12,642 nt of DNA from Candidatus Bathyarchaeia archaeon. Lineage in GTDB: Archaea > Thermoproteota > Bathyarchaeia > Bathyarchaeales > Bathycorpusculaceae. The notes beneath the pieces are model-generated. The model worked only from the letters and a program-made list of their open reading frames with translations, ran no database searches and was not told where the DNA came from. Where the stretch lies: the NCBI GenBank assembly GCA_049970895.1, contig JBMFMB010000028.1:1-12642 (forward strand), in the 5' to 3' direction. This document shows positions 1-3,861 of the stretch, one piece after another. Both the position numbers and the translations under genes were made by a program. The first letter of the stretch is position 1. Every line of letters starts with the position of its first letter.

Positions 1-320
1 CATTCGCCTGTTTCTCTCGTATGGTTTATTAGGTGTCTTATTACGTTTGGCATTTCATATGTTTCGCCAGCCTTAGCTGTAAGTATCCTGTCTTGCCATG
101 ATAGTGAAATAGATGGCTCAGATGTTTTTACTGGCAGTAACAGCCTTTCTTTATAAGCCAAGAGTAGCAGGCTTCGCTTTGTCTCCTCATCACAGTTTAT
201 TTCTCCGTAGGATATTCTCCCCCTTTCCGAGGCCAACGCCAATATTTCTGCCAAAATGCTTGTTTGCTCTCTTGGATACCGTCTTTTTAAAGCTTCTCTT
301 AACCTGTTTAGGCTCTCCAA
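1..320 (-). CDS. Hypothetical soluble protein, 5' part only (runs off the left edge; missing from ORF track)
   Basis: Manual translation from TTG at 320 is open to position 1: MESLNRLREALKRRYPREQTSILAEILALASERGRISYGEINCDEETKRSLLLLAYKERLLLPVKTSEPSISLSWQDRILTAKAGETYEMPNVIRHLINHTRETGE... GAGG SD-like sequence upstream and an in-frame TGA 5 codons before the start; natural protein-like composition. Confidence 0.8.
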   Translation of the reverse strand, partial: MESLNRLREALKRRYPREQTSILAEILALASERGRISYGEINCDEETKRSLLLLAYKERLLLPVKTSEPSISLSWQDRILTAKAGETYEMPNVIRHLINHTRETGE

Positions 321-358
321 ATCATGTTCGCCTCAAAAAATAAAGGAAGAAGCTGTGT

Positions 359-724
359 TTATCGCGCGATGTATGGTTTTTTAACTTGTTCCGCAGCTTT
401 TAGAGTTACTATTTTTGGCATGTAGTGGCTTATTGCGAGTATTGTTCCCCACGTTAGAAAGGTAACAACAGACATGGCTGTGCCAACGGTTGCCATTTCA
501 TGAAGCATTACCGGAATATCTGCTGGGTTTGACATCGCTGTTAGAAACGGCGGCCATGGAACAACTTCAGCATGCCACACGTGTTCTAATGCTAGTAGGA
601 TTACTCCTCCCCACAATAGTGCGTTTAAAATCCAAAGTTTCAACTTTTCAGCCAAACTTCGCGCCGATTTCTGTATGATGGATGTTATAATTGCCAGAGC
701 CATCGGAACTAGAAAGCACGCCAT
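359..724 (-). CDS. Small 3-TM membrane protein (121 aa), paralog A; putative metal-transport subunit
   Basis: Three hydrophobic segments (about aa 3-18, 30-47, 78-98); GGAGG SD upstream of ATG; N-terminal MAC, LWGGVILLALEHVWH and LHEM motifs. Function is inferred from context only. Confidence 0.85.
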   Translation of the reverse strand: MACFLVPMALAIITSIIQKSARSLAEKLKLWILNALLWGGVILLALEHVWHAEVVPWPPFLTAMSNPADIPVMLHEMATVGTAMSVVTFLTWGTILAISHYMPKIVTLKAAEQVKKPYIAR

Positions 725-736
725 CCTTTTTCCTCC

Positions 737-764
737 GTAACACTAAATTTATATTCGGTAACAC
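737..764. promoter_or_regulatory. Putative NikR operator 1
   Basis: GTAACAC(737-743)-N14-GTAACAC(758-764); 28-bp span with AT-rich spacer containing a TATA-like box; same geometry as the site at 2487-2514; nikR is 400 bp away. Confidence 0.7.
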
Positions 765-773
765 CAATATAAG
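748..773. promoter_or_regulatory. Overlapping divergent TATA boxes
   Basis: TTTATATT on + (748-755) and CTTATATT on - (773-766), each about 22-27 nt upstream of the corresponding SD-containing leader arm. Confidence 0.55.
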
Positions 774-793
774 CTTAACGGAGGAAAAAGCGC

Positions 794-1090
794 ATGTGGC
801 TTGTAATCCTAGCGTTTGCCGCTGCGATTGCCACTCCAATATGGTATTCAAAAGCCGAGGAAGACAAGTGTATGCTTAAGCTTCTATGCCTCATACTCTG
901 GGGAGCAACAATAATGGTTTTCGTAGACCACGTAATGGGCTTCTTGATGGAGGGCGGTGAGTTCTTCGAGTTGACGCTTGACGCTACAATTTTGGGTTTT
1001 GCCATGCTGATAGCTGCACTTGTAATATGGGAGATCGTCCTCCTGCTCAAAGACCCAAAAGGCATATTATACAAAAAGAAGAGCGAATAG
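794..1090 (+). CDS. Small 3-TM membrane protein (98 aa), paralog B; putative metal-transport subunit
   Basis: Three hydrophobic segments (about aa 1-18, 28-45, 64-85); GGAGG SD; LWGATIMVFVDHV and GFAM-x7-W motifs align with the 359-724 protein; basic C-terminal tail. Confidence 0.85.
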   Translation: MWLVILAFAAAIATPIWYSKAEEDKCMLKLLCLILWGATIMVFVDHVMGFLMEGGEFFELTLDATILGFAMLIAALVIWEIVLLLKDPKGILYKKKSE

Positions 1091-1162
1091 ACGTTACTTC
1101 CCATATTTTCTTTCATTCTTCTATTGGAAGAATTCCTGTAAGGATGAATGGATGCTTATCAT

Positions 1163-1564
1163 TTATTCGTGAACAGTTACAAGTTTGGTTTGCTTAACTC
1201 CCCTTACCCCGCTTATTTTTTGGCTTAGGTTTTTAATAAGTTCAGCTTTACCCTTTATCGCGAGGATTTCAAGGCAGTTTTTCTCGTTCAAGTGTATGTG
1301 CATGGTGGAGTTTATTATGTCTCTAAAGCCGTGCTGAATGTCTGTTAAAGAATCTTCAAGTCCTCTTACAGTGTGGTCAAATAAAATTATGATTGCTCCA
1401 GCGACTTCGCCCTCTGCTTCGCCAAACTCGAACTCTGTTATGAAGTTTCTCATGGCAGCTTGAATTGCTTTAGACCTATCCCTAAAACCCATTTTATGCA
1501 TTGCCAAATCAAACTTTTCAAGAAGGTCCGGGGGAACCGAAACTCCAATACGATGGACAGGCAA
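1163..1564 (-). CDS. nikR: Nickel-responsive transcriptional regulator NikR
   Basis: N-terminal ribbon-helix-helix (RIGVSVPPDLLEKFD...DRSKAI) plus C-terminal ACT-like domain with the Ni ligand pattern QH-x10-HIH-x5-CLE; 133 aa; TTG start. Confidence 0.95.
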   Translation of the reverse strand: MPVHRIGVSVPPDLLEKFDLAMHKMGFRDRSKAIQAAMRNFITEFEFGEAEGEVAGAIIILFDHTVRGLEDSLTDIQHGFRDIINSTMHIHLNEKNCLEILAIKGKAELIKNLSQKISGVRGVKQTKLVTVHE

Positions 1565-1570
1565 ACCTTT

Positions 1571-2446
1571 TCACTCCATCGATGTTAAATTTGGCTTATT
1601 AGCCTTAAAAACTGCACTTTTATAGTTTGCTGGCTTAATCAGCTTAAGTTTCTCTGCTATTGCATCCACCTTCTCCATTAGAAACGCCTTCTCATAACTG
1701 GGTATTACGCTACTTTCAATTCTCTCCCTTAACTCGCTTAACATTTTAAAATCGTTGATACTGTGCTTTTCAACTCTTACATCAAATGATTGAATCTTTA
1801 AACCGCATTCCTCAATCACCTTTCTGATAAGCGATGGGTAGGTTGTTCCATATCGAAAAATCGGAACCAAATCATATAGATAGGCTTGAAGCCTCTTAGA
1901 AGTTGCTTCATGCCTAATTTTTGAATAAACCTCAAATTCAAACCTTAGTGTGTCAATCTCCTCCCGAAGGGCTTCACCTTCAGAATCAACAGAGGGCTCT
2001 TCGATAAGTATGAATCCGTCGCCTTTGAGCAGTGATGCTAAATTCTTAATGATGAGTTTAAGGAGCCTAAGTGGATGGTGATGAAGCATATTGCTCACGT
2101 TTATTGCTTTAAATGAGCCTTCCCTGAACGGGAGGTGGGTTGCGTCGGCCAAAACTAGGTGTGAACGTTCTTTTGGCAAAATTTTCTTCGCAAATTCCAA
2201 CGCTTTTTTGGAAAAGTCGATTCCAACAACCTCAATTTCCGGGTTGATCGAAAATAAGGCTAGAAGGTCTATTCCACTTCCTGTTCCAACATCTAAAACC
2301 AGCCCATCTGTATTAAATTTGTAACGCTTAAACTTTTCAATTCTATCTCCCAACTTTTTCTTCAAATCATCAACACTTAGCTTAGATGCCTTTTCATTTA
2401 CCCACTCCACCTCTAAAAGTTTTTTTGAGAGATATACCTTGTTCAC
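1571..2446 (-). CDS. Class I SAM-dependent methyltransferase
   Basis: Motif I VLDVGTGSG, acidic VGIDFS, ADATHLPF, MLHH and LKGDG-xILIEE; GTG start with GAGGA SD; ends 6 bp before nikR. Confidence 0.88.
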   Translation of the reverse strand: MNKVYLSKKLLEVEWVNEKASKLSVDDLKKKLGDRIEKFKRYKFNTDGLVLDVGTGSGIDLLALFSINPEIEVVGIDFSKKALEFAKKILPKERSHLVLADATHLPFREGSFKAINVSNMLHHHPLRLLKLIIKNLASLLKGDGFILIEEPSVDSEGEALREEIDTLRFEFEVYSKIRHEATSKRLQAYLYDLVPIFRYGTTYPSLIRKVIEECGLKIQSFDVRVEKHSINDFKMLSELRERIESSVIPSYEKAFLMEKVDAIAEKLKLIKPANYKSAVFKANKPNLTSME

Positions 2447-2486
2447 AGCTAATCCTCAAAAGCTCATCATTCATATAGGAAAAAAA

Positions 2487-2514
2487 GTGTTACGGTAATA
2501 TATAAAAGTCACAC
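2487..2514. promoter_or_regulatory. Putative NikR operator 2 overlapping the TATA box of the methyltransferase-nikR operon
   Basis: GTGTTAC(2487-2493)-N14-GTCACAC(2508-2514), an inverted repeat with 1 mismatch; spacer contains TTTATATA on the - strand (2506-2499). Confidence 0.7.
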
Positions 2515-2539
2515 CAACAAAATATATCACGGTGATAAT

Positions 2540-2857
2540 TTGCCAGACGAGTTGTCTATTGAAATTAGGAAGTTTGAGGTTAGACTTCAAGAATTTATAA
2601 AAGCTGAGGATGAAGCAATCAAATCGTTAAAAGCCTTCATAGAAAAAGTCAAAGAACTAAACAGCCTCCTAGAAGCACAACCCGAAAAGAGAAAACCTGA
2701 AACACTTGAGAAAATAATTAAACTTCGACTCGAAACAATCAAAGCTCTACAAAACGCCCTAAACTGCACAGCAAAAGCCGAACATGAAAAAAGCCACATC
2801 CCACAATCATACGGAACAATCCTACTAACCATAGAAAAACTAACCAAAACATCATAA
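2540..2857 (+). CDS. Hypothetical alpha-helical/coiled-coil protein (105 aa)
   Basis: TTG start preceded by GGTGA SD (2531-2535); E/K/L-rich heptad-like pattern; AEHEKSH motif. Confidence 0.75.
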   Translation: MPDELSIEIRKFEVRLQEFIKAEDEAIKSLKAFIEKVKELNSLLEAQPEKRKPETLEKIIKLRLETIKALQNALNCTAKAEHEKSHIPQSYGTILLTIEKLTKTS

Positions 2858-3331: not shown

Positions 3332-3725
3332 CTAGAGTTTTTCAACTCTTAATTTTTCGCCTTCATTCACCTTTTCAAGAACCTTTGGGTCTCCGAGGAT
3401 TTTTCCTATAACGTTTACTGGGCTGTAGGGCTTAATTATGTTTGGCGAGAGGCTTGAGAGGGTTGGACCGAAGAATAGACATAGGGCTGGTCCTTCTGGC
3501 CAGTAGGCTACGTCGCCGTAATCAACTATGGCTTTTGCCTTTTCTAAGCCTACCTTAAATGGTGCCTCGAAGTAGATTTCCTTGCCCAAAACTCAGCTCG
3601 CGCTTCGAATGGCAAGGCCCCCTCATTAATGCTTCAGCTGTTTTTGGGTTCTCGTCAAACCTTATTTCACATCGAATGGTTATTCCAGATTCAAATGAGA
3701 TTTTTATTAGCTCCCTTTTATTCAT
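3332..3725 (-). pseudogene. Cyclophilin-like fold protein (DUF369/TM1367-like), interrupted by two frameshifts
   Basis: Three frames join to MNKRELIKISFESG...NPKTAEALMR / ALPFEARAEFW / GKEIYFEAP...GDVAYWPEGPALCLFFGPT...SPVNVIGKI; breaks at homopolymers 3618-3622 and 3585-3591; ATG at 3725 has a GGAG SD. Confidence 0.8.
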
Positions 3726-3861
3726 AGTTTTAAACTCCGTCTTTAAGCTCATTCTTTTGTTAGGTTTAAAAGGGTTCGCATAGAGTTTTCCACTATCTTC
3801 GTGCATACATTCTTCTTATTTGCTGTTTATTGAACTTTCATGTGACTTGACCTTTGATATG

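Follow-up and report, generated by a model that had tools for sequence, protein, structure and literature searches.

A pair of small membrane proteins behind NikR-type boxes in a Bathyarchaeia archaeon is a candidate nickel permease of a new family

We analysed a stretch of 12,642 bp (hereafter the window), which is the whole of contig C28 of G000, a genome bin of a Candidatus Bathyarchaeia archaeon (1.34 Mb, 45% G+C, 97% complete). The sequencing runs containing it were DNA only and labelled as hot-springs metagenome, with no RNA run among them. The left end of the window carries two divergent genes for small membrane proteins, memA and memB, together with a nikR gene (nikR2), three further genes and two operator-like sites (Table 1). 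An initial annotation of this DNA had listed the same six genes, and all were found where it had placed them. Its nikR is genuine according to Pfam, NCBIfam and structure matches, and its view that the other genes have no assignable function also held: memA, memB, sol and hel gave no family above cut-off in Pfam or NCBIfam scans, and MT has no specific equivalog. As it had stated, no known nickel transporter family was recognisable among the Pfam and NCBIfam matches in the window. Based on the evidence described below, memA and memB probably encode a NikR-repressed nickel uptake permease of a new family; we put the probability of this reading, which rests on sequence analysis, at roughly 0.6.

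Table 1. Features of the window and units associated with NikR-type boxes in genome G000 (aa, amino acids; ORF, open reading frame; SAM, S-adenosylmethionine)
Feature	Position	Strand or sequence	Description
sol	3-320	-	ORF call; first 106 codons of a 202-aa gene running off the contig; soluble protein
memA	359-724	-	121 aa; three predicted helices; larger subunit of the pair
site 1	737-764	GTAACAC-N14-GTAACAC	direct repeat, TATA-like spacer, in the 69-bp memA-memB gap
memB	794-1090	+	98 aa; three-helix membrane protein; weak memA paralog and obligate partner
nikR2	1163-1564	-	second NikR paralog of the genome; convergent with memB
MT	1571-2446	-	291-aa class-I SAM-dependent methyltransferase, extended by ~130 aa at its C-terminus; heads the MT-nikR2 unit
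site 2	2487-2514	GTGTTAC-N14-GTCACAC	inverted repeat with one mismatch, TATA-like spacer, in the 93-bp MT-hel gap
hel	2540-2857	+	105 aa; predicted coiled coil; own box in front
box unit	G000:C8:44166-46498		nikR1, divergent from a 176-aa membrane protein (no Pfam)-FmdE-metallo-beta-lactamase fold
box unit	G000:C25:3278-7594		three in-phase half-sites, then a 168-aa membrane protein (no Pfam) and a 1248-aa CobN/Mg-chelatase homolog
box unit	G000:C9		FmdE-Peripla_BP_2-FecCD-ABC ATPase
box units	window		divergent promoters of memA/memB and of MT-nikR2/hel
sites without an obvious target	G000:C15:4742-4769, G000:C8:57046-57074		C15 site lies 590 nt before a trypsin-like/PDZ protease gene

The two membrane proteins form a constant pair. 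A scan with one genome per species gave 270 confirmed memA loci, of which the best 80 were fetched for the locus counts given here. In six-frame searches with hidden Markov models (HMMs), memB was found within 1.2 kb of memA at 78 of these 80 loci, and the other two lie at contig ends. The genes are divergent in 51 of the 78 loci, tandem with memA first in 20 and tandem with memB first in 7. Among seven loci from related genomes, memB was beside memA in six, i.e., wherever the contig allowed. Natural fusions of the two are represented by at least six proteins at 50% identity (P0168, P0150, P0228, P0219, P0227 and P0186), in which a complete memA is followed by helices 2 and 3 of memB, without its helix 1 (memB-HMM E values of 2e-21 to 4e-8). 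One of these clusters comes from Eubacterium sp. and one from an uncultured archaeon. In the window proteins, Lys plus Arg residues number 4 in loop 1 and 5 in the C-terminal tail of memA, 3 and 5 in the same parts of memB, and zero in the second loop of either protein, that of memB being acidic. The positive-inside rule is an established topology principle; on these counts it would place both proteins with the N-terminus outside and the C-terminus inside, and a fusion lacking memB helix 1 would retain this topology. The AlphaFold2 model of the memA monomer shows three helices (predicted local distance difference test, pLDDT, of 71), and that of the archaeal fusion P0228 shows five long helices (predicted template modelling score 0.69, pLDDT 73). 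Fold searches with the P0228 model gave a best E value of 0.54 in Foldseek and a best Z score of 6.8 in VIA-align, with matches to helical hairpins only.

The memA family is large, its relatives forming 2145 clusters at 90% identity and 395 at 50%, whose source names are all 'hypothetical' or inconsistent automatic labels. Searches against families and structures, as proposed in the initial annotation, placed MT among the class-I SAM-dependent methyltransferases but left memA and memB without a Pfam, NCBIfam or PDB match; a profile search of solved structures gave nothing for memA and chance-level rows only for memB. A search of the ESM Atlas returned unnamed clusters only, and the memB relatives scanned showed no consistent Pfam family. 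No Pfam match to CbiM or CbiN was found in memA, memB or 36 family members, nor any to PF03824 (NiCoT/NicO) or PF04955 (HupE/UreJ) in memA or memB. A literature search found no description of the family, with most subscription journals outside its coverage. The two proteins had been taken for paralogs; this was borne out, although weakly, by BLASTP (E value 0.001), by hhalign (E value 2e-4, probability 47%, 70 columns) and by matches of the memB HMM to memA-family proteins at 1e-5 to 1e-8. They have in common the motif LWG-x6-(E/D)-H at the end of helix 2. Conservation in memA was assessed over 150 representatives at 50% identity, some columns holding fewer sequences. Near-invariant positions are Cys3 (90/91), Glu/Asp47 (150/150), His48 (149/150), Glu53 (150/150), Pro59 (150/150) and Glu76 (145/145); Met84 is almost invariant, and His51 is present in 127 of 150. 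Cys3, Glu/Asp47, His48, Glu53, Glu76 and Met84 are of a type that makes them candidate metal ligands. In memB, the residues W36, G37, M41, D45 and W79 are invariant.

The gene memA was found in 9 of 61 related genomes (8 strong matches) and in 66 of 401 sampled Thermoproteota genomes, belonging to 25 of 162 genera. Archaeal loci among the 80 come from Bathyarchaeia, Methanomethylicota, Caldarchaeales/Aigarchaeota, Desulfurococcaceae, Archaeoglobaceae, Thermoplasmata and Altiarchaeales, and bacterial ones from Dehalococcoidia, Elusimicrobia, Atribacterota and Desulfotomaculum. Members of the memA family also occur in Agathobacter and Eubacterium.

The product of nikR2 covers the whole NikR_C profile (PF08753, positions 1-77 of 77; E value 8.1e-29, 100.1 bits against a cut-off of 22) and exceeds the cut-offs of NCBIfam NF002169 (139 bits, cut-off 111) and NF003381 (131.5 bits, cut-off 105) over residues 3-132; Pfam RHH_1 alone scored 18.5 bits, just below its cut-off of 20.5. 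It aligns from residue 3 with Pyrococcus NikR (PDB ID 2bj1; E value 2e-29), and the 'QH' and 'H-x-H-x(5)-C' positions are identical; these His, His-x-His and Cys positions we take to be the high-affinity nickel ligands of NikR. On these matches, nikR2 encodes a bona fide NikR with an N-terminal ribbon-helix-helix and a C-terminal metal domain. A second gene, nikR1, lies at C8:44166-44591; linkage of nikR1 to nadA is seen in Bathyarchaeia. The only sequence that clusters with nikR2 in a tree of NikR proteins is the NikR beside memB at locus L040, from another Bathyarchaeota bin (77% identity, support 100/99), and nikR2 stands apart from the clade of nadA-linked nikR1. The NikRs that adjoin memA and memB fall in at least four NikR lineages of this tree, from archaea and bacteria.

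The initial annotation had seen the same 7-N14-7 site in both divergent gaps of the window. Both sites exist and have AT-rich, TATA-like spacers, but their symmetry differs: the two words of site 1 are exact and direct, and those of site 2 are inverted with one mismatch. In Rodionov et al. (2004, PMC545781), the signal GTGTTAC-[N13/14]-GTAACAC, also in everted orientation, is predicted de novo to be the NikR signal before nik(MN)QO-type operons of delta-proteobacteria, and the half-site word at both window sites is the word of those predicted boxes. Of the two window sites, only site 2 has the inverted or everted symmetry; site 1, like most archaeal memA boxes, is a direct repeat. Site 1 would thus work like the published box type without belonging to it, and its words lead us to predict that NikR binds it. 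The half-sites of site 1 bracket a TATA-like element that would serve memB; a second such element (766-771, minus strand) is separated from the memA leader by the same half-sites. The leaders of memA and memB mirror each other through a perfect 13-nt inverted repeat at 726-738 and 778-790 (CTTTTTCCTCCGT / ACGGAGGAAAAAG) and have the same GGAGG Shine-Dalgarno sequence.

The genome-wide scan for such sites that had been suggested, made with at most one mismatch in total, returned only these two in 1.34 Mb, and five shuffled genomes gave 0-4. Since this count is ordinary, it is the placement that stands out, as both sites fall in promoter gaps no more than 1 kb from nikR. A degenerate pattern, composed after the sites were seen, matched twice in the window and in none of 200 shuffles. 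Site 1 is kept in all seven aligned intergenic regions (the window and six relatives). We then surveyed the 67 loci in which memA was found by an ORF caller and BLAST (13 of the 80 were dropped), counting half-site pairs that lay in the 160 nt before memA, had no more than one mismatch per half and had a spacer of N13-15. A box was present in 43 of the 67 loci, at a distance of 12-20 nt from memA and mostly starting 38-48 nt before the start codon; in the window, site 1 ends 12 nt before the memA ATG. The 11,255 bp upstream of memA held 43 half-site pairs, as many as the remaining 834,343 bp, and several of the latter precede hel, FmdE, a nikM remnant or nikR. Direct repeats make up most of the archaeal boxes, and the boxes of Caldarchaeales are everted with N15. 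An equivalent of site 2 lies 18-28 nt upstream of hel in three loci without the nikR-MT unit (L029, L030 and L053), so that site 2 would ancestrally be the hel box. With GTAAYAC words and at most one mismatch, the G000 scan gave nine sites, eight of them intergenic; shuffled genomes gave 6-13, at random places. The idea that nikR2 reads GTAACAC and nikR1 reads GTAATAC was dropped, as G013, which has the nikR1 type only, carries GTAACAC words at hel and between memA and memB.

The gene neighbourhoods of the homologs, which the initial annotation had put forward as a check, show an association with nickel genes. Each gene cluster in the flanks was named from the Pfam match of one representative, and nikR, [NiFe]-hydrogenase, hyp or lar genes occurred in the flanks of 17 of the 80 loci. 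Five Caldarchaeales-type loci have the order nikR-memB<>memA-hycI (<> marks divergent genes), and in the four with more flank hycI is followed by the [NiFe] large subunit, the small subunit and mvhD. In G035 the order is nadA-nikR-larE-larC<>larB-x-memB<>memA. Two Elusimicrobia loci are nikR-headed operons, and further nikR-memA adjacencies were found in the phylum sample (G135, G181, G216 and G245). Six loci from Dehalococcoidia/Chloroflexota (L080, L087, L091, L093, L089 and L104) have tandem memA>memB genes without a NikR-type box; these pairs follow a Fur-family regulator, or an ABC-3 permease and a methyltransferase, and are often beside nadC. No NiCo or cobalamin riboswitch was found before the pair in 13 bacterial loci, the single cobalamin riboswitch lying 5 kb away.

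G000 has genes for nickel enzymes and would need the metal: three encode [NiFe]-hydrogenase large subunits and two CdhA-like proteins, and larA is present as well. NiCoT and HupE/UreJ genes were found neither in G000 nor in four relatives, and control genomes gave matches. The only CbiM/NikM-family gene of G000 (C17:26274-26861, minus strand) is a pseudogene with two stops, a 20-aa deletion and a decayed box. Its ortholog in G013, of the same genus (L020:3649-4311), is an intact solo 'MHIPDG' nikM behind GTAATAC-N14-GTAATAC, and G035 has a box-preceded, frameshifted nikM remnant directly after memA. Stop-containing CbiM matches over the cut-off were found in 3 of 8 memA-positive and in 0 of 53 memA-negative genomes. 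One CbiQ/EcfT gene is present in each of the five genomes examined, that of G000 on contig C1; no Q (T component) or O (ATPase) gene was found among the window ORFs.

The six genes had been taken for one cluster, but only memA and memB travel together. Among the 80 loci, sol was found in 4 and hel in 3; among the seven loci from related genomes, sol was found in three, hel in two, nikR in one (3.5 kb away) and MT in none. G013 and G057 have sol-memA<>memB-hel, where hel directly follows memB, and the nikR2-MT unit of G000 would therefore be an insert or a variable cassette. In the independent hot-spring run X3, one contig, at a depth of 5.6 and with 38 letters on its shorter side, runs directly from position 1127 (the end of memB) to 2549 (the start of hel). 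Depth in this run is ~6 over MT and ~100 over nikR2 and the memA/memB pair. These contigs agree weakly with a variable nikR2-MT insert, and strains seem to differ in the nikR2 part independently of the MT part.

The full-length sol protein is P0288 (202 aa), whose N-terminus is identical to the window ORF and whose C-terminus equals that of P0307, a protein of G000:C9, but for one residue. The gene starts after a gap of 38 nt downstream of memA and is probably co-transcribed with it. Its family comprises 40 clusters, and wherever sol occurs it lies after memA; the precomputed label PF27374, borne by all 40 relatives, was not confirmed, P0288 giving 0 families in a Pfam copy without that model. 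For hel, only sub-threshold Pfam matches were found, and it adjoins memB in L013 and L016; an 80-aa box-preceded ORF in the hel slot of G035 was considered as a relative and rejected, as it shows no similarity. MT matches Methyltransf_25 (60.5 bits), Methyltransf_31 (60.2) and Methyltransf_11 (57.9) above their cut-offs over residues 50-159, with no NCBIfam equivalog at cut-off. Full-length MT orthologs were found in 2 of 60 relatives: that of G020 has its own GTGTTAC-N14-GTAATAC box ~38 nt upstream with no nikR adjacent, and that of G057 has no box. Judging from these sequences, sol, hel and MT are best described as putative lineage-specific, local members of the NikR regulon. Further right in the window, at 3332-3806 on the minus strand, the match of an 85-aa ORF to the Cyclophil_like profile is confined to profile positions 40-120, and this ORF overlaps an upstream 83-aa ORF in another frame; the region may be a frameshifted or split cyclophilin-like gene.

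The sequence left of the window, to which the initial annotation had pointed, could be traced. Bases 1-80 of the window are 99% identical to G000:C9:5266-5345. In the probable source run, the shared flank has a depth of 130, which splits into 72 for the window path and 38 for the C9-right path. The two paths are strain variants; the C9-right path has a truncated sol and a transposase-like gene. In the dominant strain, sol is followed by a minus-strand operon (region C9:604-5345) encoding FmdE with a zinc ribbon, a Peripla_BP_2 protein, a FecCD permease and an ATP-binding cassette (ABC) ATPase, behind a GTATTAC-N14-GTAATAC box at C9:4237. The sol-FmdE order recurs in G057, where FmdE again lies behind a box. 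By analogy, this operon, which we take to be of BtuCDF/NiuBDE-like type, is a second nickel-transporter candidate; memA and memB are therefore not alone as transporter candidates here. FmdE-family proteins recur in NikR-box operons (C8 and C9 of G000, L023 of G057, and L053) with different neighbours, i.e., ABC-3/ZnuABC-like, FecCD-type or an unnamed membrane protein, and this recurrence suggests a nickel-related role for an FmdE subgroup.

Taken together, the position of the pair in the transporter slot of a NikR regulon is supported by the box at 43 of 67 loci, by adjoining nikR genes of at least four lineages and by hydrogenase, hyp and lar neighbours, whereas the cluster around it is not conserved. 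We propose that memA and memB would form one heteromeric membrane unit of 3+3 helices that imports Ni(II), and possibly also Co(II). Both genes would be transcribed from the 69-bp divergent promoter, in which a TATA-like core is bracketed by two NikR half-sites, with predicted start sites at about 741-745 (minus strand) and 776-780 (plus strand). Nickel-loaded NikR represses importer genes. When nickel is plentiful, Ni-NikR (from nikR2, the nadA-linked nikR1 or both) would occupy the box, exclude TATA-binding protein and transcription factor B, or polymerase, from both promoters, and thereby switch memA and memB off. Site 2 would likewise control hel and MT-nikR2, in which case nikR2 would be autoregulated.

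The outer face of the unit would carry the N-terminal Ala-Cys of memA (after removal of Met), its E-H-x-W-H-x-E at the end of helix 2 and the D-H of memB at the same position. Because the positive-inside rule puts these candidate ligands outside, capture of Ni(II) outside the cell is likely the first step. The N-terminal amine site of NikM and the Ni-hook of nickel superoxide dismutase are analogies for the Ala-Cys. No ATPase is conserved beside the pair, ABC ATPase genes lying within 4 kb in only 7 of 67 loci; the unit may be energised as a secondary or facilitated permease, or by the energy-coupling factor (ECF) module shared within the genome. It is possible, though we offer this as a tentative extension only, that the pair represents a new class of minimal permease, a 3+3 heterodimer (or, in some Firmicutes and archaea, a five-helix fusion) with an Ala-Cys amine/thiolate hook and a Glu-His...Glu cluster, free of a dedicated ATPase and able to replace NikM, and that archaeal NikR reads direct repeats. 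The range of the pair extends from hot-spring Thermoproteota to Dehalococcoidia, Elusimicrobia and gut Lachnospiraceae.

Several observations count against a NikR-repressed nickel permease. The models are of middling confidence and show no convincing match to a solved transporter. Published NikR boxes are inverted or everted, so binding of NikR to direct repeats is an extrapolation, and 24 of the 67 loci have no box, nearly all bacterial ones included (one Elusimicrobia locus has it). Among labelled clusters, no metal-related neighbour was found at 53 of the 80 loci, and ten loci adjoin Fur, DtxR, FeoAB, ABC-3 or FmdE genes instead. NikR is present in 52 of 66 memA-positive and 278 of 335 memA-negative genomes, i.e., without enrichment at the genome level, although with NikR in 330 of 401 genomes its co-occurrence with memA is uninformative; the 14 memA-positive genomes that lack it include a whole family. 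The CbiM pseudogenes are few and come from kindred genomes, and memA is not complementary to intact CbiM/NikM, which is found in 3-4 of 8 memA-positive and 26 of 53 memA-negative genomes. Finally, the shared EcfT means that the pair may depend on ECF. Considering the ten loci with other-metal neighbours and the 24 without a box, the transported metal could differ between lineages. An alternative is that the pair moves another divalent metal (Co, Fe, Zn or Mn), is broad-range or exports nickel, NikR control being one arrangement of several. We consider it unlikely, even though bacterial pairs are found beside a Fur-family regulator (4 loci), DtxR with FeoAB (4 and 3) and ABC-3/ZnuB-like genes (2), NikR is missing from the genomes just mentioned, and Cys, His, Glu and Met ligands do not discriminate metals. 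The NikR-type box at a fixed position and the hydrogenase, hyp and lar neighbours point to nickel, however, and no NiCo or cobalamin riboswitch was found before the pair in the 13 bacterial loci. The Fur family, moreover, includes nickel sensors such as Nur. As for export, a box that brackets or overlaps the core promoter would fit repression at high nickel, which is the logic of an importer.

A quite unlikely alternative is that the pair is a capture or accessory part, like a split S component, with a separate energiser (ECF T/A or a FecCD ABC system), or else a metallochaperone or sensor in the membrane. In size the pair matches an ECF S component, with six helices and 219 residues in all; a CbiQ/EcfT gene lies elsewhere in all five genomes examined, G000 included; and the box-preceded FmdE-binding protein-FecCD-ATPase operon follows sol in the dominant strain. 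Relatives also keep a solo nikM behind a NikR-type box without N, Q or O genes beside it, so that remote energisers seem usual in this clade. Against such a role, neither an ATPase nor a T component is conserved beside the pair, no sequence or fold likeness to CbiM/NikM or S components was detected, and the fold searches gave weak matches only. That the nickel link is a mere coincidence, the boxes being either common promoter elements or targets of a different regulator and the function of the pair having nothing to do with metals, appears very improbable. The direct-repeat symmetry is indeed unlike every published NikR box, the spacer is itself the TATA region, and the 53 loci without a labelled metal gene nearby would be expected. 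However, NikR boxes predicted in unrelated bacteria (PMC545781) have these seven-letter words. The words also precede nikR1, the FmdE-ABC operon and CobN in G000 and the nikM of a relative, and adjacency to nikR recurs in at least four NikR lineages of archaea and bacteria.

Compared with the NikR-repressed nik(MN)QO and nikKMLQO operons in the available part of Rodionov et al. (2004, PMC545781), the system described here has the same regulator family, the same half-site words, the 13/14 spacing and a box before a presumed importer, and site 2 is one letter apart from a Geobacter sulfurreducens site given there. The direct repeats of site 1 and of most archaeal boxes, in contrast, are not among the arrangements in that part, and the pair shows no detectable sequence or fold likeness to NikM, N, Q, O, K or L and has no linked ATPase. 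Like NikM/CbiM, it would be a small membrane capture unit with an invariant extreme N-terminus. NikM begins with Met-His, and its amino group binds the metal. memA, however, starts with Met-Ala-Cys, has three helices rather than seven and no CbiM Pfam match; in view of the three CbiM/NikM pseudogenes, the pair may have functionally replaced NikM. The proposed role also resembles that of NiCoT (HoxN/NixA) and HupE/UreJ proteins, which take up nickel independently of an ATPase and are often controlled by NikR and encoded next to hydrogenase or urease genes, but those are single polypeptides of 6-8 helices, whereas memA and memB are an obligate three-helix pair. CbtA/CbtB is a two-subunit cobalt transporter of small membrane proteins, predicted from genome context and linked to B12 riboswitches; memA and memB have no Pfam CbtA or CbtB match, and have a NikR-type box and no riboswitch. 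A survey of nickel and cobalt transporters in J Bacteriol in 2006 reportedly extended NikR boxes to archaea. A NikR-controlled nickel acquisition module is known as such, and it is the putative transporter family and the direct-repeat symmetry of the archaeal operator that are undescribed.

Nickel supply limits hydrogenases, CO dehydrogenase/acetyl-CoA synthase, lactate racemase-type enzymes and methanogenesis, and to our knowledge many archaea and anaerobic bacteria have no recognisable nickel importer. If the direct-repeat boxes are indeed read by NikR, they would widen the known range of NikR-DNA recognition by a binding mode not described for the NikR tetramer, and the FmdE-like proteins that recur in box-preceded operons would be a further candidate for nickel handling. 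With 219 residues in total and natural single-chain versions, the pair is an easy target for uptake assays and structural work. If memA and memB do import nickel, their family, with ~2100 clusters at 90% identity and members in about one in six of the sampled Thermoproteota genomes (66/401) and in several bacterial phyla, would fill part of the importer gap in metabolic reconstructions.

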